In this document: in pieces, positions 6,501-64,000 of the stretch
Position numbering within the stretch: position 1 is the stretch's first letter
Layout: each line of letters begins with the position of its first letter
Origin: Escherichia phage anhysbys
Length of the DNA: 64,000 nucleotides
Sequence record: NC_052656.1
Direction: 5' to 3' (one strand)
The notes under the pieces: generated by a model
Database searches by the model: none
Told to the model about the DNA's origin: nothing
What the model saw: the letters and a program-made list of their open reading frames with translations, nothing else
Program-made: the position numbers and the translations under genes

Positions 6501-6897
6501 TGTAATCTAAACCATAAAACAGTTTTGTAGCCAACCAGTCATAGTTGATACCGTTGTGAGCCACAGCCATTTCAACCAGATATTCAGGCTTATCTTTAAA
6601 ATAACCTTCATGATTAATAAAGTCTGGGAAATCTTTTAGTTGAAAATGTGTGTAATCTTGCGCCACATACTCTTTAAGAACATATGTGTATTTACCATCT
6701 GACTCTTCATAAGGACGCCCATCAAAGATGTATTTAGGGCCATCGTGGAAAGCTACTATTTCTCCTGTTTCATGGTTCTCTAAGACAATACAGTGCATTT
6801 GAAATGTGTCTTTGAGACGATAAGGACTAGCTAAATAATCGATAGTGTCATTATTCAACAATCCGTTTGCTTCAATATCCCATGTAAACTTACTCAC
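3565..6897 (-). CDS. Family A DNA polymerase with 3-prime-5-prime exonuclease domain, interrupted in frame by an intein
   Basis: Exo motif DIEANGL; motif A GYDFDSLEAKIESHY (cf DYSQIELRIMAHL); motif B RSPAKSVKYGITYGAQ; motif C AYHDEAQLEV; 245-aa insertion between motifs A and B. Confidence 0.85.
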   Translation of the reverse strand: MSKFTWDIEANGLLNNDTIDYLASPYRLKDTFQMHCIVLENHETGEIVAFHDGPKYIFDGRPYEESDGKYTYVLKEYVAQDYTHFQLKDFPDFINHEGYFKDKPEYLVEMAVAHNGINYDWLATKLFYGLDYSVKYNTWGKNKVKLIDSLILSKVLNPDRKIEGKSGHSLAALSRKAGGDVKIDFRKEIPEEDRFKTFAADMLYYCIYDNKANTSVYNYLMEEWGDYDKWEGPFELEQRVADIITRQEHRGFAFNMKQAEENLAFLDAEMERLRLLVEPILPPKPATKGYLKAFIPPKLQIKKNLEPTNHMINFAKKHDGHLEERDGDWWLVMLGKEWKLPVAADEPLCDPNIPATLNDTTHIKNWLVGLGWVPSEYKDKDLTLKSGTKIKKSEEELQKGIRAYVEQTLSSNFCQDRCDHLECTPETLERKIQERIAKGKGRGLKVLTNPCFTKGQEKEICPNLQALGEKFPYATQIVEYLTYKHRRNSILGGGADWEEDEEDQEYDKGFLAAVRADGRIPTPAATCDAATSRMKHRSVANIPRVTSLFGWEMRNLFGVEVPKYFQIGYDFDSLEAKIESHYCVPMDAQALTRKGWVGYHDLKEGDEILGYNAETGLKEWTKVKGKVFYKNSKTFEIKGKSHTYRATADHRWYVNTRSKGNTYVPKVRTTAELCTGDNIICNAPFNMEQDQVNSLTSVQQGKWDVPWVERVVNMSHAERVAFLEGFLIADGYWHEHKQKPVWRWAQNPGELFEAALTASYLVHGGNISVAFNTKEQKVKVATLTNRSHIPVQSLTIEEWGVEDVWCPQTELGTWVMRQKDCITITGNCWRYEPEPHEYCNALLLEKPNDVHTMMAKRITETIGRKFERSPAKSVKYGITYGAQADKVAKTIGSDKFTGQLVFDAFWEAAFPLARLKERLNDFWVKTGKQYVLGIDGRKVPTRSAHAILNSLFQSGGVICAKRAMVIYDDMIEEEGLSVDFFKDDWKNKDFVQQMIAYHDEAQLEVSRNLVEFKWFSPESLGWKKVDDPEEQKKIDKECLAKVEEWKHNKEKETGQIWANIHESPKGGWFTAYSRAGELAALAVTKAGEFYNLNVQLTAGYDVGNSWASCH
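4417..5151 (-). mobile_element. Intein (Hint domain with LAGLIDADG-like homing-endonuclease motif) within the DNA polymerase
   Basis: Starts CVPMD (Cys codon at 5149-5151), block B TADHRWYV, LAGLIDADG-like AFLEGFLIADGYW, ends ITGN followed by Cys; extein resumes CWRYEP. Confidence 0.6.
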
Positions 6898-7691
6898 TAT
6901 TCCTCCTTTCTAATGTTCTCCAGAACCCACTGAAGTTCTTTTAAACTTAAACTTCTTACTCCCGCAGTTTTACTAGCTTCAGCTTTAAGTAACGGGTAAG
7001 CCTCAATGATACGCGTTTTAAGATCAGAAGTCAAGGCTTTTAAAAAATAGGTAGATGCTTCAGATAAAGAATCTTCTTCTGATAACACTTTACCTGCACT
7101 TGCTCCCGCTCTCCTAACGGCTATATCGTAGTCTTTACTGTTACCTAATACGAATAGTCGATTCTCTCCTAAAACAACGGGAGAACGCTTCTCGTTGCGT
7201 TTAATCCATATCTGGAATACACAAGGAACATCCCAAGGTTCTCCATGAAGAATAAAAGATCCTTTTGGACATTCTTCTTCGTAAAGAAGATGCATGTGGG
7301 GATTTAGTTTGTGTGCAAAAAAGATTTTTTGAAATGTGCGAGGCAAGATAAAACAAATACCACCTTCGTTATCCAGCATTTCAGCACAATGGTTAAAGAA
7401 TTTAATGGCAAGACTAGCATTTTTTCCAAATGGAGGATTACCGACAAAAGCAGTTACACTACCAACAGACTCAACAGATTGAGCTAAAAAATCTGCCTCA
7501 ATACAATCTTCAAACTTAGGGTCAATATCAAAAGAAGTTATGTTTTTAAAACAAGAAGAGAAAGCTCCTTCTCCCGCAGATGGTTCTACGTAGTTAGCTT
7601 CCTCTCCAAAAATTTCTTTGATCTTATCACATAAGAACCCCGCATAAGCGGGGTTAGTGTAATATTGATCAAGTGTGTTCAACTTGCTCAA
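6897..7691 (-). CDS. N6-adenine DNA methyltransferase
   Basis: SAM motif EPSAGEGAF and catalytic motif NPPFG. Confidence 0.7.
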   Translation of the reverse strand: MSKLNTLDQYYTNPAYAGFLCDKIKEIFGEEANYVEPSAGEGAFSSCFKNITSFDIDPKFEDCIEADFLAQSVESVGSVTAFVGNPPFGKNASLAIKFFNHCAEMLDNEGGICFILPRTFQKIFFAHKLNPHMHLLYEEECPKGSFILHGEPWDVPCVFQIWIKRNEKRSPVVLGENRLFVLGNSKDYDIAVRRAGASAGKVLSEEDSLSEASTYFLKALTSDLKTRIIEAYPLLKAEASKTAGVRSLSLKELQWVLENIRKEE

Positions 7692-53853: not shown

Positions 53854-53864
53854 GATTATACAAG

Positions 53865-53890
53865 GGGCGCACCAAGCGCCCTTTCTTTTT
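53865..53890 (+). terminator. Rho-independent terminator closing the array
   Basis: gggcgc-accaa-gcgccc then tttcttttt. Confidence 0.7.
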
Positions 53891-54923
53891 GCCCGAACAA
53901 TGTTGATAGCTTTCGCCTATGAAAAACCGACACAGAACAAAATTGAATAAATCGCGGTATCGAGCTAATCAACCATTAAACGAATAACCATACCTCCCAG
54001 GGTAACAGGCTGTTAGAGAGCCATTTATAGCGGTTAAAATCGATCAACAACCAACAACAAACCATCAAAAACACCCTTTTACCTCCTTTCTAGTGCAATG
54101 ATAACCATTATCATCTACCCATGATTATCTATGCAATATAAGCGCATAATTATAATGTTGATAATAGTTCGCAACAACTAACCAACAAACAACATAAAAC
54201 AAGAAGCAAACTAATCATAATCAAAGGAATAATAGCAAGATGATTGATAACGACAAACAATCAAACCATGATGAATACTAAGCAAGATAACGATAACACG
54301 ACAAAACAACCAACTAACGAACAATAACAAACGAAACCATTAAAATAATAACTATTGCCATAATAGTGACTGAATGAAATCATTACAAAACGAATCATTC
54401 CCAGGATCATCATTAGCACGCTATGCCGGACACATAGCGAGCTAATAATAAGCCAACTACACCCCAACAATCATAACCATCGGTGATGGTTATTTCTTGT
54501 TACTGCGTAGCTTGCAATAATTGCAAGCGTAATTACGCTTACACTTATTGCGCTGGCTTATTATTAGCATTATATGTAATTACCAAGATCATAACATTAA
54601 CGCAATAACAATAATCATTGTAATGGTTACAATATGAAATCATTGGCAAGATGAATAATTGCACGTAGCAACATGAGCGAATAGCGACAGGTTGCATAGT
54701 GTGCACATAATAGAATAAAAGTCAATAATTTTGGGGGCGAAATGTTACCGCCACAGGCGGGAATGTTGAGCACTAAGAAAAGAGATAAACCTTAATCATG
54801 GGGGCGTAAATATCCGCAGGATTGCCAACGGCGATCCGGTAGGATGTTGAGCATCTTCTCTTAAACGTAAATAAAATCAGAAAATTCTTGATTTATTTTA
54901 GTTTTTATGTTAATAAACGTTTA

Positions 54924-54943
54924 AATAATAATCATTCTCATAT
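54924..54943. promoter_or_regulatory. Fur-box-like palindrome
   Basis: aataataatcattctcatat. Confidence 0.35.
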
Positions 54944-55101
54944 GAATAATAGTCTGCTTGTCATGAGCGGGATTAGTTGACATTGTTCCGTCATATGATG
55001 AGGTTGCCAACCTATTGATAAATAAGTGTTTGTGTGATTTATAATCAAGTGGCCCACCTTGTCGCTATGTTGGCATGAGCCTTGCATAAGTCATTGAATA
55101 C

Positions 55102-55122
55102 GAATGATAATTATTCTCATTC
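55102..55122. promoter_or_regulatory. Fur-box-like near-perfect palindrome
   Basis: gaatgataattattctcattc. Confidence 0.4.
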
Positions 55123-55462
55123 GCATGATATTTGGGAATTGTCGCTGCGTGGACCTGACGGCCCGAAAATTCGCGTTAAGCACTTCTTACGTATGCGCCA
55201 TGATTTTTGCCATATGATATTGATTCTATTAGATATTCTTGCCATGATTGCCATGAAACAGGGTGTCCCGAAATAATCTCTCCCCGTAGATATTTTGGGT
55301 TACTTTTTATACAAGAGTGGGGTGTCAAAAATAATCGATATATATGGGATAATTGATAGGAATCCCCTATGGTAATTCGATTGTAATTGCCGAAGATTGA
55401 TCGTATGATGTTGGTGATTGATGATTGCCATGAAAGATGGCTAACGATGAGAGGAGATTGTC

Positions 55463-55807
55463 ATGCAAGAGAGTAAAAATGTTCCGTTAAGTAGTTTACG
55501 TCTAATGAAGTTTTACAAAGCTTGGCTTGCTGGTGAGGTAGAAGGTCACACAACGAGTGGTTTGTGCATATGTTTGATTAAGTATGTGGAGGGAACATAT
55601 CCTGATGAACTGTTACCTCGTCTACAACAAGAGATGAAATCCCAGTTTATTGGTGCAGGACTAGATTACAATTTTCCGTTTAATGAAGGTGGTTATGAGG
55701 AATACACCTTCGAACATAAAAAACATATTTGCCATAAAAACAAACATCGTATACAATGGGTGTTAGATAGAATTCAGGATTATGAAGGAGAGAAAAATGA
55801 CAAATAA
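55463..55807 (+). CDS. Hypothetical protein, paralog family A member 1
   Basis: FYKAWL...TSGLCICL...QF..AGLDYNFPFNE...RIQWVLDRI. Confidence 0.5.
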   Translation: MQESKNVPLSSLRLMKFYKAWLAGEVEGHTTSGLCICLIKYVEGTYPDELLPRLQQEMKSQFIGAGLDYNFPFNEGGYEEYTFEHKKHICHKNKHRIQWVLDRIQDYEGEKNDK

Positions 55808-56165
55808 TATTCCGTTGAGCAGTGCAGCATTGCTTCGCTTCTACAAAGCATGGATTGCCAACTATCCTGCAATGAATCGCACAACGAGTGGCTTATGTGG
55901 TTGTCTGGTAGATTATGTAGATGATTTTGTTGGTGAGACAACTAGAGAAGAAGATAGAAGATGGCGGGATAGTTTGTTAGACCGTTTGAAATATGAAATG
56001 AGGAAACAATTTACATGTGCAGGGCTGGACTACAATCTTCCGTTCAATGCAGATTGCATGGATTACCTTTCAGAGTGTATAAACTTGGCGTGTCATACCA
56101 ACACGTTACGTCTTCAATGGGTGAAAGATCGCATTGAAGATGCAAATAATGCTTGCATTGAATAA
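55797..56165 (+). CDS. Hypothetical protein, paralog family A member 2
   Basis: FYKAWI...TSGLCGCL...QFTCAGLDYNLPFN...RLQWVKDRI. Confidence 0.5.
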   Translation: MTNNIPLSSAALLRFYKAWIANYPAMNRTTSGLCGCLVDYVDDFVGETTREEDRRWRDSLLDRLKYEMRKQFTCAGLDYNLPFNADCMDYLSECINLACHTNTLRLQWVKDRIEDANNACIE

Positions 56166-56223
56166 AAATGTCTGTATAGTGGTTTGCATACCGCGCATAA
56201 CAAATAGCCAATGAGGAGATGAA

Positions 56224-56445
56224 ATGAAGAATTTGAAAACTGTCACAATGTTCTTGACTGATCCTACACGTGTGCAAGCACTGGCTAAAGCCAGCCGTGT
56301 AGCTGTAGAATTCCAAAACTTTAAGCCGTCCGTTGTGACAGGCAGTGAAACGTGTGTTATCGATTTCATTAACGAATACTTCCGAGGGAATCCGGTTAGT
56401 CGTTACTTCATTAAAAACTTGAAGGATGTGGAGCAGGTACAATGA
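56224..56445 (+). CDS. Hypothetical small protein
   Basis: 73-aa ORF with RBS. Confidence 0.4.
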   Translation: MKNLKTVTMFLTDPTRVQALAKASRVAVEFQNFKPSVVTGSETCVIDFINEYFRGNPVSRYFIKNLKDVEQVQ

Positions 56446-56681
56446 TCCTTCCAGTAGATAATGAGATAGCTATGAATGTTCTGGATACAGAATACTTCTA
56501 CAATCACTACTCTGAGACAGAGTGGATGAACACGCAAACTCTAAAAGAGAAGACGCAAGCTTTGATTAAGTGTGATCGCTACTTGCAACGTGCCGAGGAA
56601 GATAATATAACATTAGCATCTCGCGCACGACGCGTTTCCATTTTCAATAAAATGTTAGCATTATGGGGAGGTAGAAAATGA
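56442..56681 (+). CDS. Hypothetical small protein
   Basis: 79-aa ORF. Confidence 0.4.
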   Translation: MILPVDNEIAMNVLDTEYFYNHYSETEWMNTQTLKEKTQALIKCDRYLQRAEEDNITLASRARRVSIFNKMLALWGGRK

Positions 56682-57139
56682 GACAATTCACTATACTGGC
56701 AGCTTATGTGCAATGTGTTCACGATTATGTTAGTGCTCATACAGGTGTGCTGGAAGTTACCAGTAAAATTGAAGGTAATATGGGTACTGTCTGTGTGCAA
56801 CATACTTTATCCAATGTGCCGTTTAAAGTGTTCACTGTTGTAGCTGCCGATTACAATCGCGTAGATGTGCGTTTCTTGGATCGTAATTTTCGTAACGCAC
56901 TAGATAATATCGAAGATTATCTTCCCGTGAAACCTTTGTCATTTCCACCGAGTCGTGCAAATAATGTAGTGACAAATCTTAATGAAAGAAATGTGGCTAT
57001 GCACAAAAAAGTCCGTCAATTGAAAATGCTGATGGAAATGCAAGAAGAGATTGAAAAAGAACTAAAAGAAGATTTTGGTATGCTTCCAAAAGACGCTTTG
57101 AAATGGTATGATGAACTAGGAGGAGAAAGCTATGAATAA
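56678..57139 (+). CDS. Hypothetical protein
   Basis: 153-aa ORF. Confidence 0.45.
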   Translation: MRQFTILAAYVQCVHDYVSAHTGVLEVTSKIEGNMGTVCVQHTLSNVPFKVFTVVAADYNRVDVRFLDRNFRNALDNIEDYLPVKPLSFPPSRANNVVTNLNERNVAMHKKVRQLKMLMEMQEEIEKELKEDFGMLPKDALKWYDELGGESYE

Positions 57140-57326
57140 AGGAACTACTGTATATTTAGTGACTAAGAATACCCCAGGTTGGAGCCAATGCAGCACTGTT
57201 CCTTACAAGATCTGTGCAACATTAGAACTAGCACAACGTGCAGAAGCAGAAGTTGATGCTATGCGATACAGCTACGGTGAAATCATTCCTTTTACTCTTG
57301 AACAAGAAGGAGCACATCATGTTTAA
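57132..57326 (+). CDS. Hypothetical small protein
   Basis: 64-aa ORF. Confidence 0.4.
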   Translation: MNKGTTVYLVTKNTPGWSQCSTVPYKICATLELAQRAEAEVDAMRYSYGEIIPFTLEQEGAHHV

Positions 57327-57774
57327 AGTAGGGTTTACTTATAAATTCAAAAGTGTTGTTGACCAAGGAGCTATGGCAACACAGGACAAAGCAAATATTG
57401 CTGTTTGCCAAGCAATTGGAAACGAAGTTTTCAAAGTTATGAATACAGATGATAAGTATGGTCATGTTCTTGAGTTTTATATCAATGGTACCCTCTATAC
57501 AGCAGGTGTTACCCCAGGGTTTAATTCGTATACTTATTTGATTGATAACGAAGAATTTAAATATTTTGAAGAAGTAAAGGAGGAAACAATGGGTAAAGCA
57601 GAACCACAATGGCATGTTGTGATCGTAGGATCAGAGTGTGTAGATGTTTGTTCTAGTTTTGAAAAAGCTTCTGAAGTCGCTACAAAAGCTAAGAAGGATT
57701 ATCCGTCGAAGACGGTTGAGATTTACGCTCGTGTTGCAGTAGCAAACGCCACAATCACTATTGATAAGGAGTAA
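57319..57774 (+). CDS. Hypothetical protein, paralog family B member 1
   Basis: Starts MFKVGFTYKF; C-terminal WHVVIVGSEC... Confidence 0.45.
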   Translation: MFKVGFTYKFKSVVDQGAMATQDKANIAVCQAIGNEVFKVMNTDDKYGHVLEFYINGTLYTAGVTPGFNSYTYLIDNEEFKYFEEVKEETMGKAEPQWHVVIVGSECVDVCSSFEKASEVATKAKKDYPSKTVEIYARVAVANATITIDKE

Positions 57775-57779
57775 AGCCA

Positions 57780-58235
57780 ATGTTCAAAGAAGGTCATGTC
57801 TACCGTTTCCAGGATGAAGATTATATGCGATTATATTCTACCTTTGATAACAGTATGGCTGCTATCATTGGAGAGAATTTTTTCGAGGTGTTGAGCACTG
57901 ATGCAAATGGTAATATCTTGTCAATTGTTGTGATAGGGAGAGACGGTATTATCACTGCTAGTGATGGGGATCGTTACATAATCAATTCTGCTCATATAGA
58001 TTATTTTGTTGACGGTGGTATTCGTGGTAGTCGTGGAAAACCCCAAGAAGAACCTGTTGATACAACAAAAGAAGAGTGGTATGTTGTAATGACTGATGAC
58101 ACCTGTATTTCTGGATTTGAAAGTTATGAAGAAGCTTTGAAAGAAGCAGCAGAGCATAAAATGGCTAATCCTACAGAAGAGGTTGAAGTTTATAAACGTT
58201 TGGTTGTTGCTACCATCGGCGTATCTTTTGTTTAA
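57780..58235 (+). CDS. Hypothetical protein, paralog family B member 2
   Basis: Starts MFKEGHVYRF; C-terminal WYVVMTDDTC... Confidence 0.45.
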   Translation: MFKEGHVYRFQDEDYMRLYSTFDNSMAAIIGENFFEVLSTDANGNILSIVVIGRDGIITASDGDRYIINSAHIDYFVDGGIRGSRGKPQEEPVDTTKEEWYVVMTDDTCISGFESYEEALKEAAEHKMANPTEEVEVYKRLVVATIGVSFV

Positions 58236-58247
58236 AAGGGGAATGTT

Positions 58248-58685
58248 ATGTTTAAAGTTAATGCTGTTTACTGTTTCAAAAGTAAAGCTGCCTGTGAAGC
58301 TTTCTCTATGATCTCTGATGAAAATTTCAAAATGGCAGCTTTGATTGAAGGGTCTTGTTTCCGCGTCGAAGATGTTAGTGAATCAGGTTCTGTTTGCTCA
58401 TTGACTTTATTGGACAGCGGGGATATTATTGAAGCTGGACAGTATCCGTTCAGAAGTTGGGAGATATTGTTAGCTCGCGGAGAGCGTAACTTTTTTATGT
58501 GCGTGTCTGCGGGGGAAGTTGTGAAAGAAACTAAGGATGTTTCTGTTTACAATTCTGAATTTATAAGTTATAGTGAGTATCAACATCTGGAAGGCATTGT
58601 TGGTCACTTGTTATCTCTGATTGACATTGAATGTGACTTGCCTGAATCATTGAAAGAAGAGTTGAAAGCATTAGATCTGCTGTAA
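58248..58685 (+). CDS. Hypothetical protein, paralog family B member 3
   Basis: Starts MFKVNAVYCF. Confidence 0.45.
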   Translation: MFKVNAVYCFKSKAACEAFSMISDENFKMAALIEGSCFRVEDVSESGSVCSLTLLDSGDIIEAGQYPFRSWEILLARGERNFFMCVSAGEVVKETKDVSVYNSEFISYSEYQHLEGIVGHLLSLIDIECDLPESLKEELKALDLL

Positions 58686-58712
58686 TGTTTGACACAACGA
58701 AAGGAGAATAAG

Positions 58713-59012
58713 ATGAATCTGACTGAACAGTTACGCCGTATTGCAAAAGAAGCTTCCTTCAACTTCCCTGTTGAAGAAGTGATCGAGACATGTTTTGCTG
58801 AAGCACGAGCGGGAAACTCTTCAAGAAATTTCACACCATCTGATTTTGGTTTGGATAATTCTCCTACTCATCCAGGGGAAATCTACAATCAGGTGAAGTG
58901 GATGGATGAAGCAGTAGCAATTCTTCGTGAGCGTGGGCTTATTGTTTATAAAGAAATGGATCTGAACGGGGCATACGAGTGGATCACTATTGATTGGTCC
59001 GAGGTGAAATGA
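58713..59012 (+). CDS. Hypothetical protein
   Basis: RBS aaaggagaataag ATG. Confidence 0.45.
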   Translation: MNLTEQLRRIAKEASFNFPVEEVIETCFAEARAGNSSRNFTPSDFGLDNSPTHPGEIYNQVKWMDEAVAILRERGLIVYKEMDLNGAYEWITIDWSEVK

Positions 59013-59245
59013 TGAAAGGTAACAAGATGAAAGTTAATCAAGTGCCGAGCGCATACACTTTGTGGCTTGCGCGAGCGTTACACCAGACGATCAAAAACCC
59101 TAAGAAGCCAATGAAGAGCGGGAAGAAGTTTATGTCTAAGGGCAAAACAACCTTTGGCTTCACTCGTATGTCTGTTAAGATGAAAAGACTGGGGTACAAG
59201 CCAAACTACGCTCGTTACCCTTCTGAATACAACTGGTTTGACTAA
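59009..59245 (+). CDS. Hypothetical basic small protein
   Basis: Lys-rich 78-aa ORF. Confidence 0.4.
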   Translation: MMKGNKMKVNQVPSAYTLWLARALHQTIKNPKKPMKSGKKFMSKGKTTFGFTRMSVKMKRLGYKPNYARYPSEYNWFD

Positions 59246-59257
59246 AAGGAGAAAGCA

Positions 59258-59731
59258 ATGGCAGGTTTGAAACTGGAGATGTTGACAAAGCAAGAATTTG
59301 TTCCCGAACACGGTGAAACTTACATTGCTTTCTTGATTAGTGATTTTTATGGGGATTTAGAGTATGTTGAACTGGAATGTGAGTTTCACTACCAAATGAT
59401 TGACGCAGAAACTGGTCATTGTCTGGGTACGTCTGCGGTGTATAATGGTGATAATGGCATTCCTTTTCATACCCCAATGAGGTACGAAGCGAAAAACCGA
59501 TTCAAACTTCTCACAGAAGAAGAAAAAGAGACATATAAATATCACGAAGAGGAGGATCAACGCTTCTGGTGGGAGAAAACTTGGTTCCTGTCTGATCGCC
59601 GTAATCTTCAGATTCACCCAGAAGAACTGGATGAAATGTCTATTGGCATTATGAAGAAGAAAGACTTCATGTTCCAGGTGAGAGAAGCTAATAAGCTCCG
59701 TATTGCAATTAAAGAGGAGAACAAAACATGA
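59258..59731 (+). CDS. Hypothetical protein
   Basis: 157-aa ORF with RBS aaaggagaaagca. Confidence 0.45.
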   Translation: MAGLKLEMLTKQEFVPEHGETYIAFLISDFYGDLEYVELECEFHYQMIDAETGHCLGTSAVYNGDNGIPFHTPMRYEAKNRFKLLTEEEKETYKYHEEEDQRFWWEKTWFLSDRRNLQIHPEELDEMSIGIMKKKDFMFQVREANKLRIAIKEENKT

Positions 59732-60012
59732 AAACATCTATTCGCGTAAAACATGATCCAAACAGCAGTTACCCATACGCGGATGTTGAACGTCATGAAG
59801 GAGACTATTACACCATAAAACGTAAAGTCCCAACTGATACAGGGTTTAACTTTGATGTTATTGCGCTGGATGATCAAGGTGTTGATAATCTGGTGAACGC
59901 ATTACTCGCATTGAAGGAAGTACGACATGAAAATCAGACTAAAGGTAAAGTGGCTTTCGATTCTTGTGATCGTTTAGCCGAAGAGATTGCCGAATGGCGT
60001 GACACTAACTAA
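59728..60012 (+). CDS. Hypothetical protein
   Basis: 94-aa ORF. Confidence 0.4.
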   Translation: MKTSIRVKHDPNSSYPYADVERHEGDYYTIKRKVPTDTGFNFDVIALDDQGVDNLVNALLALKEVRHENQTKGKVAFDSCDRLAEEIAEWRDTN

Positions 60013-60027
60013 AACAGGAGAAAGATT

Positions 60028-60204
60028 ATGGCTACTTTTCAACAACTGAAAGATGTTTCACGTTTAGTAAGAAAAATCCGAGAAGCAGACGCTGCTGTGC
60101 GGAATGCACTAACGCCAGCAGAGCGTGAAGATCTTGAAGAGGAGGTGAAAACAGCCGAGAATGCTTTTGCTGTGTATCTTGCAACACTGCATACAGGAGG
60201 TTAA
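60028..60204 (+). CDS. Hypothetical small protein (58 aa)
   Basis: RBS aaacaggagaaagatt ATG. Confidence 0.35.
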   Translation: MATFQQLKDVSRLVRKIREADAAVRNALTPAEREDLEEEVKTAENAFAVYLATLHTGG

Positions 60205-60519
60205 ATGTCAGAGGAACTTAAAGAATTTTATCAGGCATATCATAACTGGCTATTAGCTGGTGCTCCAGATAATAATCCTTTCTGGCATGATAAAGGATTA
60301 TGTAGTTGTCTCTACCTTTGGACTGGTGGTTACGATGATCTAAATTATGAAATGCAAATGCAATTTCGAGAAGCAGGGTTGTCTGAAGAATACCCGTTTG
60401 ATGACGGAGACTGGTTTAAATATGATTTTGCACAAAGAAACGGGCTATTGCATTTGAATGCTGCCCGTATAAAATGGGTAAAAGATCATGCTACACAGGA
60501 GGATGTGCAATGCCAATAG
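60205..60519 (+). CDS. Hypothetical protein, paralog family A member 3
   Basis: FYQAYHNWL...GLCSCL...QFREAGLSEEYPFDD...RIKWVKDH. Confidence 0.5.
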   Translation: MSEELKEFYQAYHNWLLAGAPDNNPFWHDKGLCSCLYLWTGGYDDLNYEMQMQFREAGLSEEYPFDDGDWFKYDFAQRNGLLHLNAARIKWVKDHATQEDVQCQ

Positions 60520-60710
60520 TGTTTAGTTTCTTGGTAATTGTTATGGTTGTTCTTTTCGCAGCATGGCTTTGGGATTTTGACCCAGGAGCAGCGCAGCAAA
60601 GAGCTACAGACTGGAAAGAACAATGTATTGTGCTCAAACATGAACGAAATGCGGAGAAATTTCTTGACCTGGAGTGTGATCGCCTTGTAAGATACAAGCA
60701 AGATAAATAA
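60510..60710 (+). CDS. Small membrane protein
   Basis: MPIVFSFLVIVMVVLFAAWLW. Confidence 0.4.
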   Translation: MPIVFSFLVIVMVVLFAAWLWDFDPGAAQQRATDWKEQCIVLKHERNAEKFLDLECDRLVRYKQDK

Positions 60711-60724
60711 CTTTGAGGTGCAAA

Positions 60725-60913
60725 ATGGTAATTGAGATTAAACTTGAATATGCTGGCGCTGTTGCTCTGATCGCACAAATGCTTGGAGCAAAGATTGAAG
60801 AAGTGTATATCAATGCCTGGAGCGTAGAGATTGATGTTCCTATGGACAACATTGCTAATCGCTTGCTGGTGGCAGAGTGTGAACGCACCAACATAATCTA
60901 CAAAGGAGCATAA
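60725..60913 (+). CDS. Hypothetical small protein
   Basis: RBS gaggtgcaaa ATG. Confidence 0.35.
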   Translation: MVIEIKLEYAGAVALIAQMLGAKIEEVYINAWSVEIDVPMDNIANRLLVAECERTNIIYKGA

Positions 60914-60914
60914 T

Positions 60915-61136
60915 ATGAAAATTAGAGTTTGTGATGTATTGGGTTATGTTGGTTTTGAGAATGTTCAGATTCCTTTTGTTGTTGAAGCACATCTTGTTAG
61001 CGATGACATGACAACATTCTTTGTTACGATAGAAGAAATGTCCAAAGTTGAGGGATGGGAGTGGTTTGAAGAAGATGTTTGGGAAGGTTGTGATTACGTA
61101 TTTTTCTCTGATGAAGTGAATGTTCTTTCGGAGTAG
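60915..61136 (+). CDS. Hypothetical small protein
   Basis: 73-aa ORF. Confidence 0.4.
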   Translation: MKIRVCDVLGYVGFENVQIPFVVEAHLVSDDMTTFFVTIEEMSKVEGWEWFEEDVWEGCDYVFFSDEVNVLSE

Positions 61137-61138
61137 GT

Positions 61139-61345
61139 ATGTCTTGTTTTACAAAAGCAGTATCCATATGTAAGAAACAGTATGAAAGTGACTACGGAAT
61201 ATTTAATATTCCAGTGGATCATACGGAGTATTGTTCATGTGGTGGCAGAATGAAGAAAACAGTGATTTATGCGGATAATGGAGATGAACTTGTTCCGGTT
61301 ATGGTTTGCAAAGCTTGTCATTCTGTTAAAACATTAAAAGCGTAA
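61139..61345 (+). CDS. Small zinc-ribbon protein
   Basis: C..C...H..CSCGG ... CKAC. Confidence 0.35.
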   Translation: MSCFTKAVSICKKQYESDYGIFNIPVDHTEYCSCGGRMKKTVIYADNGDELVPVMVCKACHSVKTLKA

Positions 61346-61440
61346 GGAGTCGGGACACCCGACGATTGGAGCTAAAAATTTTGCGTACAACCCTTTCCGC
61401 CCAACAGGGGCGCGTCGGGTAAATAAAGAGGAGAGTTTAT

Positions 61441-61839
61441 ATGAAAAAGATCATCGTAGGTTTATTGTTACTCATTGCGTCACTTGGAACAGCAAATGCG
61501 TCTCAAGTTTATGAGTGTGTGTCAGATGTGGTTGTTAAAAATCTGAAAGGTGAAGTGATTTCTGGTCCTAAGAAAATGGCTTCTGTTGTCATTAATAAAG
61601 ATAACTCCTTTATCCTTAAAAATTCAGGTGGTGCTTTGATGAGTGGCATTCTGCAATACACAGGAGAAAAAAGTAAAGATGGTAGTGCTATGTACGGTTC
61701 GCAACAGTTTATTGGCACTACTGAAGTTGTGATGATGCGCACAGAGTATCGAGACACTTTAGCTTGGTTTGCATTTCTAAAAAATGATAAAACAATAACG
61801 AATGTTCTTACTCTAGAAGCTGATTGTACGCAACGATAA
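61441..61839 (+). CDS. Secreted protein
   Basis: Signal peptide MKKIIVGLLLLIASLGTANA. Confidence 0.5.
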   Translation: MKKIIVGLLLLIASLGTANASQVYECVSDVVVKNLKGEVISGPKKMASVVINKDNSFILKNSGGALMSGILQYTGEKSKDGSAMYGSQQFIGTTEVVMMRTEYRDTLAWFAFLKNDKTITNVLTLEADCTQR

Positions 61840-61849
61840 GGGGGTATTT

Positions 61850-62296
61850 ATGACTAAAGTGCGACATTATGCTGTAAACTGCAATGATGTTTGGCGTTTG
61901 TGTCCTGATGATCCGACAGAAGGCACATTTGTAAAATATGAGGATTATAAAGAGTTATCGGATGCTGTGATCGCATTGTTAACTGATATCCGTTCACGTT
62001 ATCCAGGACAAGATTTCACTTGCCCTCACATCAAACTTCTTGCTTGTCTGGTAGAAGATGAGAAAGAAGTGGAAGATGGCTTCAAGCGTGTAGAGTATCA
62101 AGGTGAAACTTTAGATGTTCCTGAATTTGTTAATTATATTGCAACAGACTCGGATGGTGATCGTTATGGTTACAGCCATAAGCCAGAGATTCCTGATTGG
62201 ATTCCCGCTTGGCGTATTTCCGTTAGTACCGGAGACTATATCTTCCTTGGCGTAGGTAGTAGTAAGGATTGGCGTTTCTCTTTGACAGAGGTTTAA
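61850..62296 (+). CDS. Hypothetical protein
   Basis: 148-aa ORF. Confidence 0.45.
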   Translation: MTKVRHYAVNCNDVWRLCPDDPTEGTFVKYEDYKELSDAVIALLTDIRSRYPGQDFTCPHIKLLACLVEDEKEVEDGFKRVEYQGETLDVPEFVNYIATDSDGDRYGYSHKPEIPDWIPAWRISVSTGDYIFLGVGSSKDWRFSLTEV

Positions 62297-62300
62297 TAAT

Positions 62301-62564
62301 ATGAAAGAGACATTGCCAGCAGCATACCGTTTGAATGATGAGCGTATTTGGGAGTGGACCGACGTTTCTTGTTTTTACCCTGAGATAGTTCAATATTGGC
62401 GAGCGAAAGGGTGTGTTGTAGTTATCAACCCTTGTGGACCAGTAGATGAAGATTGCTTGTATCTCGATGGAAAGTGGCACAGTTATTGTCGCTGGCCTTT
62501 TGAGTGGATGTGTAAAGAAGATCTCCCAGAGGGTTGGGAGTATCCAAAAGCAAATAGGAGATAA
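62301..62564 (+). CDS. Hypothetical protein
   Basis: 87-aa ORF. Confidence 0.4.
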   Translation: MKETLPAAYRLNDERIWEWTDVSCFYPEIVQYWRAKGCVVVINPCGPVDEDCLYLDGKWHSYCRWPFEWMCKEDLPEGWEYPKANRR

Positions 62565-62565
62565 T

Positions 62566-62928
62566 ATGTCTAAAGATTTTGTTGAAGTATTTGTCAAAGA
62601 TGAAGAAACTGGTTTAGGCACGGGTTTCATTTGTGAAGAAACTTTTAAGCGTGAACAAGAAAAAGCCATTCTTATGCACCGCTATGATCATGCATTAGAA
62701 CAATGGAAAAATGCAGAACAAAAATGCAAAAACCTTTACGCAGAAAATAGAAAACTACAAGATCAAATGGAGTTGTTAGCTATCAGTTTACGATCTCTCA
62801 TTTTGGCTGTAGAAGATGGTTTTAAAAATCCAGATGGTTTTCCTGTGAGCGATATTGAACATGATTTGTATCTTGCTCGTGGTGCTTACTTTTATGTTAA
62901 ACAGAAGCCTGTAGAAGGAGAGAAATGA
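62566..62928 (+). CDS. Hypothetical protein
   Basis: RBS aataggagataat ATG. Confidence 0.4.
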   Translation: MSKDFVEVFVKDEETGLGTGFICEETFKREQEKAILMHRYDHALEQWKNAEQKCKNLYAENRKLQDQMELLAISLRSLILAVEDGFKNPDGFPVSDIEHDLYLARGAYFYVKQKPVEGEK

Positions 62929-63125
62929 TGGAAGAAAAACTGGAACGTATTATCGAGTTAGCCATGTCTATTGGCTACGACGATTGTTTTCTCCAAACTA
63001 TTGGAGAAACACAGAACGATTACGACTCTTGGGTGAAAGAGTTGGAAGAACTCAAAACTTCCTTGATTGCTGACTTTGCTTACGCAGAGAATAAAGCAGA
63101 TCGTTACAACTATCTGTGTCGATAA
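62925..63125 (+). CDS. Hypothetical small protein
   Basis: 66-aa ORF. Confidence 0.4.
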   Translation: MMEEKLERIIELAMSIGYDDCFLQTIGETQNDYDSWVKELEELKTSLIADFAYAENKADRYNYLCR

Positions 63126-63127
63126 GC

Positions 63128-63160
63128 CTTGACATTTATTTTATGTATGGTATACATACA
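63128..63160 (+). promoter_or_regulatory. Promoter-like TTGACA-17-ATACAT overlapping a palindrome
   Basis: atgtat-ggtatac-atacat. Confidence 0.35.
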
Positions 63161-63187
63161 TTATCAACGTGAGAAAGGTGGTGTAAT

Positions 63188-63460
63188 ATGAATAAAGATC
63201 GGTTTCTTTCTTTAGTCGCGGAAGCGCCTTTTGATGTTCTTGGGGTGAGATTATGGAAAGACAGAAACTATGGGTTAGATGTTCAAACATATTCTCTTTG
63301 GTTGGTTGGGGAGCACAGCTTAGATGAAAGCTTGTGCATGGGTAGGGATTCTCGTTCCCTTTGTTTAAAGTTTAGAAGCTTAGAACGCGCAAACAAAGAG
63401 CAAGAAAAACTAACGAGGTGGCTAAATGAAAACAAGCGCAGGGTTGATGGAGTTTTATAA
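63188..63460 (+). CDS. Hypothetical protein
   Basis: 90-aa ORF with RBS. Confidence 0.4.
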   Translation: MNKDRFLSLVAEAPFDVLGVRLWKDRNYGLDVQTYSLWLVGEHSLDESLCMGRDSRSLCLKFRSLERANKEQEKLTRWLNENKRRVDGVL

Positions 63461-63752
63461 AATTTATCTAGCATGGATTGATGTTGGTGCTCCTGATGGT
63501 AAACCTTTTCGGCGAGATTGCGGTTTGTGTGCCAACTTGTTCGATTATGTGCACGCAGATGGCTACAATCTCCTTATAACAACCTTGTCAGACGAAATGC
63601 ACTCACAGTTCTACTACAAAGGGTTGAGTCAACAACTCCCTTTCAATGAGAACTACGATGCATATGTCTTAGAATCAGATGCAGAGGTATGTCACCTGAA
63701 CGTGGACAGGATTAATTGGGTAAGAGATCGTATTGCAGAGGAGGATGAATAA
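63426..63752 (+). CDS. Hypothetical protein, paralog family A member 4
   Basis: FYKIYLAWI...CGLCANL...QFYYKGLSQQLPFNEN...RINWVRDRI. Confidence 0.5.
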   Translation: MKTSAGLMEFYKIYLAWIDVGAPDGKPFRRDCGLCANLFDYVHADGYNLLITTLSDEMHSQFYYKGLSQQLPFNENYDAYVLESDAEVCHLNVDRINWVRDRIAEEDE

Positions 63753-63979
63753 TGTCGGATTATAACTGGTATGAACTTGAGGCTGTTTGTCAGTTTTATG
63801 ACTCAATAGTTCTGCGTGATCCAATCTGTCAAGAATTGAGTCGCCGTGCAAGTGCATTGGCAATCAATGTTAAAGTGCACGATTGGAACGCAGATCTGGA
63901 AAAAGAATTGGAATTCCTTTTGGAAACAACCTGTGTCTTCCATAAAGTGTTCCCTGAATGGTTTGAGATGGAGGAATAA
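63752..63979 (+). CDS. Hypothetical small protein
   Basis: 75-aa ORF. Confidence 0.4.
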   Translation: MSDYNWYELEAVCQFYDSIVLRDPICQELSRRASALAINVKVHDWNADLEKELEFLLETTCVFHKVFPEWFEMEE

Positions 63980-64000
63980 GCATGTGGATTGTCCGTCTTA

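Follow-up and report, generated by a model that had tools for sequence, protein, structure and literature searches.

Four homologous genes in an array of small genes

The window, meaning the whole 64,000-nucleotide stretch of the Escherichia phage anhysbys record (NC_052656.1) that we analysed, carries four related genes on the + strand, here called A to D, and a Shine–Dalgarno (SD) site was found before all four. Paralogue A (55463–55807) encodes 114 residues with a pI of 6.2 and has the SD site GAGAGGAG; B (55797–56165) encodes 122 residues (pI 5.0; SD AAGGAG), C (60205–60519) 104 residues (pI 4.5; SD CAGGAGG) and D (63426–63752) 108 residues (pI 4.5; SD GAGGTG). A and B are arranged in tandem, with the start of B overlapping the 3′ end of A by 11 nt. 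Note that B has an alternative in-frame ATG upstream, at 55782. Because AAGGAG precedes 55797 and no SD site precedes 55782, we took 55797 as the start, and the annotations of Mt1B1_P17 and ESCO13 begin the B orthologue at the equivalent ATG. All four genes lie within a long array of small + strand genes that follows a strong terminator (53862–53884) and a non-coding, ORF-poor stretch of about 1.5 kb, past which A is the first gene. We take this array to be the early host-takeover region, on the basis of gene position and analogy. No Rfam match was obtained anywhere in the 64-kb window.

The initial annotation had described these genes as a dispersed, four-member paralogue family of proteins of about 105–125 residues that share a sequence motif. 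An all-against-all BLASTP comparison of the 202 ORFs of the window confirmed the homology, since each of the six A–D pairs was significant (E values from 1e-8 to 1.6e-31, with 34–48% identity), and the four constitute the largest paralogue family in the window. Their MAFFT alignment has 25 invariant columns, and a profile HMM built from A–D and searched against the six-frame translation of the window recovered exactly these four, the next match having an E value of 0.11. The lengths (104–122 residues) agreed with the description, and the quoted motif was essentially right, although some of its elements are missing from single copies. Specifically, the Trp four residues past FY.A(W/Y) falls in a four-residue gap of A and B, GLC.CL reads GLCANL in D, and DRI reads DHA in C. 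"Dispersed" holds only in part, because A and B are tandem and overlapping, and "four-member" proved to be an artefact of the window, since the near-identical complete genome of Mt1B1_P17 has seven copies.

Membership of a large catalogued phage family

We then compared the four proteins with family catalogues. PHROG 2510 was the best match of each protein (E values of 5.6e-26, 5.6e-25, 8e-29 and 6.1e-31 for A, B, C and D, respectively), ahead by more than 15 orders of magnitude. The match spans positions 5–113 of the profile; with 219 positions in all, the profile evidently covers two-domain forms as well. Orthologues in phage ASO2A carry the annotation pVOG VOG7392 (pVOG 7392). At the level of membership there is no difference between A–D and these catalogue families, whose entry comes without a function, fold or motif description, and every database homologue seen was labelled "hypothetical" or "uncharacterized". 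Judged by these profile matches, A–D are members of an already catalogued, large and functionally undescribed phage family.

With clustering at 50% identity, an exhaustive HMM search gave at least 1,657 clusters, most of them of 95–125 residues, and the top 150 clusters included about 18 two-domain fusions and one three-domain fusion. The family occurs across many unrelated virulent phage groups whose hosts are alpha-, beta- and gamma-proteobacteria, and plasmids almost lack it (1 of 72,556). A pattern scan of 185,579 genomes matched one MAG contig, and a pattern scan of IMG/VR gave 5 loci; since both patterns were narrow, these scans bound the distribution weakly. On these sequence searches the family appears restricted to phages and nearly absent from bacterial genomes, the bacterial part of this statement being drawn from the narrow pattern scan.

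Searches of the A–D proteins against Pfam, NCBIfam and PADLOC gave no family match, and a sub-threshold match to YaeQ (E = 0.049) was judged spurious. Likewise, a Pfam scan of all 123 members aligned below and of 10 longer members yielded no family and no informative fused domain; in the same scan, one member showed a weak C-terminal zinc-ribbon and a few had N-terminal hydrophobic extensions. A word-indexed protein search returned only close relatives with uninformative names. No homologue was found in the early region of LUZ7 or the whole genome of T1, and in the CRISPRi-ART phage-fitness paper the annotation tables for T4, T5 and SUSP1 contain no phrog_2510 gene. Our literature search found nothing on the PHROG 2510/VOG7392 family.

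Conserved residues and predicted fold

To number residues we used the D protein, and the domain, which we call N4 gp3-like, was defined by a 123-sequence alignment (A2). The signature Tyr11, Gly33-Leu34-Cys35, Pro72-Phe73, Arg95 and Trp98-Val99 is present in all four of A–D and is invariant or at least 97% conserved across the 123 diverse members, with Cys35 and Arg95 found in every one; conservation is 93% or more for Asn92, Glu57 and Gln61. Copies F and G of the Mt1B1_P17 genome, the most divergent of its copies, keep Cys35, Pro72-Phe73, Arg95 and Trp98-Val99 and have lost Glu57 and Gln61. Copy D is the nearest of the four to the family consensus. Copy B has an insertion of 13–17 residues in the loop between helices 2 and 3.

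The family proteins are predicted to be cytoplasmic, all-alpha proteins of about 105 residues and five helices. The AF2 model of D, the sole copy of A–D modelled, was computed from alignment A2 with a pLDDT of 96.6 and a pTM of 0.88, and has helices at 5–19, 34–44, 48–64, 77–85 and 93–107. Homologues in BFVD superpose at TM scores of 0.75–0.89. In every helix the conserved residues line a single face, and entropy on the opposite side exceeds 3 bits; from this helical periodicity we infer that the conserved residues occupy the inner faces. The model of a two-domain fusion (P0007; pTM 0.79) is compatible with packed domains. No significant relative was detected in a fold search of the solved structures in a PDB copy to April 2026, and sequence profile searches of the PDB with alignments A1 and A2 gave no match.

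Two assignments suggested by the Cys residues were rejected. A zinc finger or zinc ribbon does not fit, as only Cys35 is invariant, position 37 being Cys in 13 and position 89 in 53 of the 123 members; the "C.C ... CH" pattern of copies A and B is not a property of the family. A papain-like or other Cys-His hydrolase was set aside on the grounds that His90 is only 80% conserved (other members have Tyr, Phe, Trp or Met, for example Tyr in the A orthologue of Mt1B1_P17 and Met in F), that the predicted fold is all-alpha, and that neither Pfam nor the PDB gave a match. As regards the uniformly very acidic surface that marks DNA-mimic anti-restriction proteins, acidity varies among the copies, with C and D at pI 4.5 (net charge −10) and A at pI 6.2, against a family median of 5.6 and a 10–90% range of 4.6–8.5.

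Copy number and selection

The window belongs to a Phapecoctavirus and is about 97% identical to Mt1B1_P17, whose complete genome contains three further copies (E, F and G) just downstream of the equivalent of the window end. Copy E lies about 0.7 kb downstream of D and is its closest paralogue (52% identity), while A and B are mutual best paralogues (46% identity), and an A/B chimera is present in phage ASO2A. Related large, rV5-like phages carry 4–10 copies per genome, and 2–3 tandem copies are found elsewhere. Each of C, F and G has dozens of homologues in unrelated phages that are nearer to it than any of the paralogues sharing its genome; for C, more than 45 members from other phages are nearer. 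Of all the copies, just the pairs A/B and D/E have the appearance of local duplicates.

The initial annotation had proposed that the copies are diverged and under diversifying selection, and named dN/dS across related phages as a check. We computed pairwise Nei–Gojobori dN/dS from 3–6 related genomes per copy, all Phapecoctavirus except for one Justusliebigvirus included for B. Each copy has a well-conserved orthologue in the compared genomes, and dN/dS stayed below 1 throughout (0.03–0.09 for A, 0.13–0.45 for B and 0.13–0.63 for D; overall range 0–0.63). The C protein is 100% identical in five phages, with 0 nonsynonymous against 1–14 synonymous differences. Constraint is thus strongest on C and evolution fastest in D, and every orthologue group is under purifying, not diversifying, selection. 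The paralogy and the strong divergence of the copies were therefore upheld and diversifying selection was not. Since C, F and G are nearer to outside homologues and only A/B and D/E appear local, the A–D set is, on these relationships, several ancient lineages, each individually constrained, rather than a recently diversifying array.

Variation among D orthologues clusters in loops and at exposed positions of helices 1 and 3. Between copies, the outer helix faces and the 43–53 loop are hypervariable, and within orthologues they are conserved. That different copies engage different targets, as had also been suggested, is plausible from such sequence patterns.

A homologue in coliphage N4

Coliphage N4 gp3 (YP_950481; 104 residues) matched the family HMM with 70 bits (E = 5e-21). 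Like A–D, it has the G-L-C, P-F and C-H-L-N-x-x-R-I-x-W motifs, is of the same length class, and is encoded in the left-end early/middle region; identity is about 30–35% at best, and N4 has one copy as against four in the window and seven in the whole genome. Arg95 and Trp98 are kept, Val99 is replaced by Ile, and Phe10-Tyr11 by Leu-Met. In N4-like contigs, family genes form arrays of small same-strand genes adjoining homologues of N4 gp1 and gp2 and lie between the gp2 homologue and RNAPII, one contig having four tandem copies. N4 gp1, gp2, gp15 and gp16 are described as early gene products (PMC4496689); a function for gp3 was not found in that review or in our literature search.

Proposed function and alternatives

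The best explanation in our judgement, to which we assign a probability of roughly 0.45, is that the genes encode a set of non-redundant early accessory modules for host interaction or counter-defence, in which the scaffold is common to all and the surfaces are particular to each copy. Each copy would be a small soluble protein produced early in infection. The residues conserved throughout the family (Tyr11, Trp17, Gly33-Leu34-Cys35, Glu57, Gln61, Pro72-Phe73, Asn92, Arg95 and Trp98) would form the helical core together with a single internal polar site that the copies have in common, and the solvent-facing helix surfaces and 43–53 loop, which differ per copy, would give each protein its own stable partner from the host or its defences. 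It is this combination of a common core with individual surfaces and putative partners that makes non-redundant accessory modules the best reading. Since tandem genes are frequent, as are natural fusions of two or three domains, the domains probably work as pairs. Purifying selection would maintain the family, and tandem duplication, unequal crossing-over and, probably, horizontal exchange would alter its copy number. Known anti-defence families gave no match in PADLOC, which is a weak test because that library holds defence systems rather than proteins that counter them.

As a counterpoint to the scaffold model, about a dozen polar residues, including the invariant Cys and Arg, recur in phages whether the hosts are alpha-, beta- or gamma-proteobacteria, which suits a shared ligand or catalytic site no less well than a scaffold that only binds. 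Such breadth across hosts points to host-independent chemistry or a host-independent ligand. In one alternative, the domain would be a small enzyme, or would modify or trap its target covalently, with Cys35 as nucleophile or redox centre aided by Arg95, Asn92, Glu57 and Gln61, and with paralogues that share the chemistry and differ in substrates, as do the three ADP-ribosyltransferases of T4. The invariance of Cys35 and Arg95, the near-invariance of the other three, the survival of Cys35, Pro72-Phe73, Arg95 and Trp98-Val99 even in F and G, and the position of Cys35 at the N-terminus of helix 2 in the AF2 model are all in keeping with this possibility. However, Glu57 and Gln61 are absent from F and G, the obvious general base, His90, is replaced in a fifth of members (including the Mt1B1_P17 orthologue of A and paralogue F), about 105 purely helical residues are few for an enzyme, the Pfam, PDB and fold searches found no kinship to known enzymes, and every conserved residue could be structural instead; we consider an enzyme unlikely. 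A broader and bolder proposal, which we hold as a speculation that is probably wrong, is that the N4 gp3-like domain has an unrecognised fold whose Cys35/Arg95 site performs a new thiol catalysis or covalent capture directed at a universal bacterial component or immune signal, with each of the 4–10 non-redundant copies in rV5-like phages neutralising a different host factor.

Two other alternatives appear more doubtful. The proteins may be cofactors of the phage's own transcription or replication rather than host-directed, the paralogues being stage- or promoter-specific variants; the extreme constraint on C (dN = 0) is as expected of a core function, and we nevertheless regard this reading as improbable. 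We give very little weight to oligomeric "sponges" that sequester signals of host immunity (cyclic nucleotides or ADPR derivatives), with paralogues tuned to different signals. The proteins are indeed small, phage-only and encoded in the early region in several non-redundant copies per genome, pairing is probable from the fusions (pTM 0.79), and the conserved aromatics Tyr11, Trp17, Trp98 and Phe73 together with Arg95 and Arg30 are residues of the base-stacking and phosphate-binding type seen in sponges. Against this, the heptad spacing of those aromatics is that of a hydrophobic core, known sponges do not have an invariant Cys as a feature, and no similarity was found to solved structures in the PDB copy to April 2026, in which Tad1, Tad2 and Acb2 are assumed to be present.

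Significance and comparison with known systems

The family is large (at least 1,657 clusters) and spread over many virulent lineages, including the model phage N4, and yet no Pfam entry, solved structure, structural relative or described function was found for it. Seven distinct copies under purifying selection in one phage represent a heavy investment in the domain, and the carrier, Mt1B1_P17, infects the mouse-gut E. coli strain Mt1B1. Solving the binding or catalysis of the domain would give annotations to thousands of early genes now called "hypothetical" in a single step and could expose a new principle of host takeover or anti-defence; if the novel-fold reading of Cys35/Arg95 were true, the family would be a new and very widespread class of counter-defence or host-takeover effectors. 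N4 is genetically tractable and has a single copy, which makes gp3 an obvious experimental entry point.

Among small early phage proteins of host takeover or anti-defence, T4 AsiA, the sponges Tad1, Tad2 and Acb2 and the DNA mimics Ocr and Arn resemble A–D in size (about 90–130 residues), early-region location and phage restriction, and further in probable oligomerisation and, for C and D (pI 4.5), in acidity. None of these known sponges and inhibitors was retained as a relative, as the searches of the PDB copy showed no sequence or fold similarity to a solved member. A further parallel is the poxvirus Bcl-2-like family, which we liken to A–D by analogy and not by homology: the hosts belong to a different kingdom, and sequence or significant fold similarity is lacking, with Bcl-xL and Mcl-1 appearing in the Foldseek search only at E values of 5–10 and TM below 0.25. 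One poxvirus genome likewise encodes a number of small, all-alpha Bcl-2-like paralogues (N1, A46, A52, B14 and K7) that share little identity with one another. Each of them is conserved between related viruses, and each is presumed to use the common helical scaffold to bind its own host factor.

Four paralogous genes in the window

The four family genes of the window, all on the + strand and all preceded by a good Shine-Dalgarno sequence, are copy A (55463-55807, 114 aa), copy B (55782/55797-56165), copy C (60205-60519, 104 aa) and copy D (63426-63752, 108 aa). The Shine-Dalgarno AAGGAG of copy B stands before the ATG at 55797, indicating a 122-aa product that overlaps copy A by 11 nt; the annotation of Mt1B1_P17 and ESCO13 has the same start, as had the initial annotation. 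Identity to copy A was 36-50% in a MAFFT alignment, in which 25 columns were invariant across copies A-D. Pairwise BLASTP gave E values of about 1e-15, all six pairs were significant in an all-vs-all comparison of 202 window ORFs (E 1e-8 to 1.6e-31), and an HMM built from the four copies matched only these in the six-frame translation of the window (next match, E 0.11). Alignment, BLASTP and HMM thus agreed that the paralogy initially claimed is real, and chance similarity or non-genes were excluded as explanations. The motif then quoted was accurate save for small details, namely GLCANL in copy D, the DHA end in copy C, and four residues after helix 1 that are absent from copies A and B. The family copies encode soluble proteins of acidic to neutral pI (4.5-6.2).

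Genomic context and copy number in relatives

Downstream of a strong intrinsic terminator (53862-53884), approximately 1.5 kb is free of credible ORFs, up to 55462, after which copy A heads a long series of small + strand genes. This A/C-rich stretch contains short dispersed repeats and palindromes, and a GGGGGCG...ATGTTGAGCA element occurs in it twice (54733-54772 and 54800-54853); judged by eye, both elements could form internal hairpins. Several GenBank records of related phages begin within the stretch, and sigma70-like hexamers were found upstream of copy A, although such matches were only marginally enriched. No Rfam match was obtained for 53862-55462, which may hold the genome end, the early promoters or an unannotated RNA. 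Note that a second tandem pair of paralogues, encoding hypothetical proteins of ~150-170 aa, lies between copies B and C on the + strand (57256-57774 and 57780-58235; BLASTP E 5e-13, 26% identity); the next gene, 58248-58685, has a similar MFK..Y.F start, the similarity being not significant. Adjacent paralogue pairs were also found on the - strand at 34073-34381/33768-34073 (E 9e-19, 43% identity) and 11246-12232/10294-11238 (E 4e-75, 41% identity). Two + strand ORFs near copy C look envelope-directed: 60474-60710 (78 aa or shorter), which overlaps the end of copy C and has the hydrophobic segment MPIVFSFLVIVMVVLFAAWLW, and 61441-61839 (132 aa), with the signal-peptide-like N-terminus MKKIIVGLLLLIASLGTANA. 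Both may be early proteins of the membrane or periplasm, acting for instance in superinfection exclusion.

The 9 kb region was ~97% identical to genomes of Phapecoctavirus (Stephanstirmvirinae; ~150 kb E. coli myoviruses of the phAPEC8/Mt1B1_P17/ESCO13 type), where all genes of the matching region are annotated as 'hypothetical protein'. Two database records, 'Campylobacter phage B15' and 'Acinetobacter phage vB_AbaM_ABPW7', were likewise ~97% identical to window 55000-64000; mislabelled hosts or contamination are the probable explanation. Copy D lies 250 bp before the end of the window, and the family HMM found seven copies in Mt1B1_P17, the orthologues of A-D and three further paralogues, E, F and G, located 0.7, 3.6 and 4.9 kb downstream of D. 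The initial description of a four-member family therefore holds within the window and does not give the true copy number. In the corresponding region of relatives, phiWec179 has 9 copies, ESCO13 7, ZCKP1 and ASO2A 6 each, Paula (Justusliebigvirus) 4, a 153 kb IMG/VR contig 10, and Av-05 (Avunavirus) 1 in the part of its genome covered, with tblastn matching two places in the Av-05 record. In ASO2A, a single gene (6660-7031) replaces the tandem A+B (55463-56165); its product has the A-like start MQESKNVPLSS and is B in the remainder, this chimera bears the mark of unequal crossing-over between tandem paralogues.

Family size and distribution

All of copies A-D matched PHROG 2510, a family of unknown function (E 1e-25 to 1e-31), and the ASO2A record places orthologues of D and G in pVOG 7392; Pfam, NCBIfam, PADLOC and PDB sequences gave no match. 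When 1.84 billion cluster representatives were searched exhaustively with HMMER, 1,657 proteins matched at E ≤1e-3 and 770 at ≤1e-10, mostly of 95-125 aa. Among the top 150 matches, ~18 were two-domain fusions (187-244 aa) and one had three domains, and other IMG/VR phages also showed tandem pairs or triplets. By tblastn, 242 phage records carried the family, including rV5-like, N4-like (Achromobacter, Erwinia, Delftia, Klebsiella) and Rhizobium phages as well as several ~43-48 kb coliphages and Klebsiella phages; BFVD extended it to Burkholderia, Pectobacterium and Pseudomonas KPP10/CHA_P1-type phages. A family copy was present in only one of 72,556 plasmids, and among 185,579 prokaryotic genomes a narrow pattern scan picked up one small MAG contig.

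Gp3 of coliphage N4 (104 aa), an unannotated ORF at 1214-1528 in the left-end early/middle region, was a clear member (70 bits). In two N4-like metagenomic contigs, family genes directly follow gp1/gp2 homologues and precede RNAPII, and one N4-like metagenomic contig has four in tandem. No member was found in the early region of LUZ7 or anywhere in the T1 genome. The literature searched gave no function for either N4 gp3 or the PHROG 2510 family.

Domain anatomy

In an alignment of 123 family sequences (copy D numbering), Tyr11, Cys35, Pro72, Phe73, Arg95 and Trp98 were invariant, Leu7, Phe10, Trp17, Gly33, Leu34, Glu57, Gln61, Phe62, Leu67, Asn92 and Val99 were at least 90% conserved, and His90 was 80% conserved. 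The extra cysteines behind the 'C.C...CH' look of copies A and B were poorly conserved (Cys37, 11%; Cys89, 43%), and a zinc-finger family was rejected for this reason. At position 90, the Mt1B1_P17 orthologue of A has Tyr and paralogue F has Met, and both F and G lack Glu57 and Gln61, which excludes a canonical Cys-His dyad for at least some members. By helical periodicity, a single face of every helix carries the conserved residues, including those that are polar; entropies on the opposite faces exceeded 3 bits, and the 43-53 loop varied in length. The model of a natural two-domain fusion (pLDDT 88.9, pTM 0.79) was compatible with packing of its two domains against each other. This model, the tandem genes and the natural fusions together suggest paired action of the domain.

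Selection and history

Diversifying selection had been proposed, to be checked by dN/dS across related phages. With orthologue groups set across eight genomes, pairwise Nei-Gojobori dN/dS was 0.03-0.09 for A, 0.13-0.45 for B, 0 for C (five phages share one and the same protein despite 1-14 synonymous changes), 0.13-0.63 for D, 0.04-0.75 for E (with few changes), 0-0.04 for F and 0.03-0.46 for G, indicating purifying selection, with no value above 1 for any copy. Substitutions in copy D cluster in loops 20-33, 45-47 and 65-76 and at exposed positions of helices 1 and 3; helices 2, 4 and 5 are nearly fixed. By BLAST ranking, A/B (46%) and D/E (52%) were mutual best paralogues, and for each of C, F and G tens of family members in other phages were closer than any copy of the same genome. 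On this ranking, the array holds two local duplications on top of at least five ancient lineages, and is not a recently diversifying cluster. The proposal was rejected on both grounds.

Discussion

The analysis established homology and distribution, the predicted fold and conservation pattern, and the copy-number dynamics and purifying selection; the mechanisms that follow are proposals. Our leading reading, to which we assign a probability of roughly 0.45, is that the copies are early-region accessory proteins. They would share a conserved helical core with a putative internal polar site around Cys35 and Arg95, and copy-specific surfaces on this common core would engage different partners from the host or its defences; the domains probably act as pairs. 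The copies would be non-redundant and hence retained by purifying selection. That the proteins instead form a small thiol-dependent enzyme or a covalent trap seems unlikely to us; less likely still are a role in regulation internal to the phage and a sponge for nucleotide signals.

The window genes have near-identical counterparts in the databases, and the family was already catalogued, though uncharacterised. The present analysis connects the family to N4 gp3, gives the true number of copies and the family size, shows that Pfam and PDB lack it, and adds a confident predicted fold without relatives, the invariant Cys/Arg signature, and the rejection of diversifying selection. Since paralogous families of small early genes are common in large virulent phages, this family is a good experimental target and not surprising in itself; N4 gp3 offers a single-copy, genetically tractable way in, from a classic model phage.
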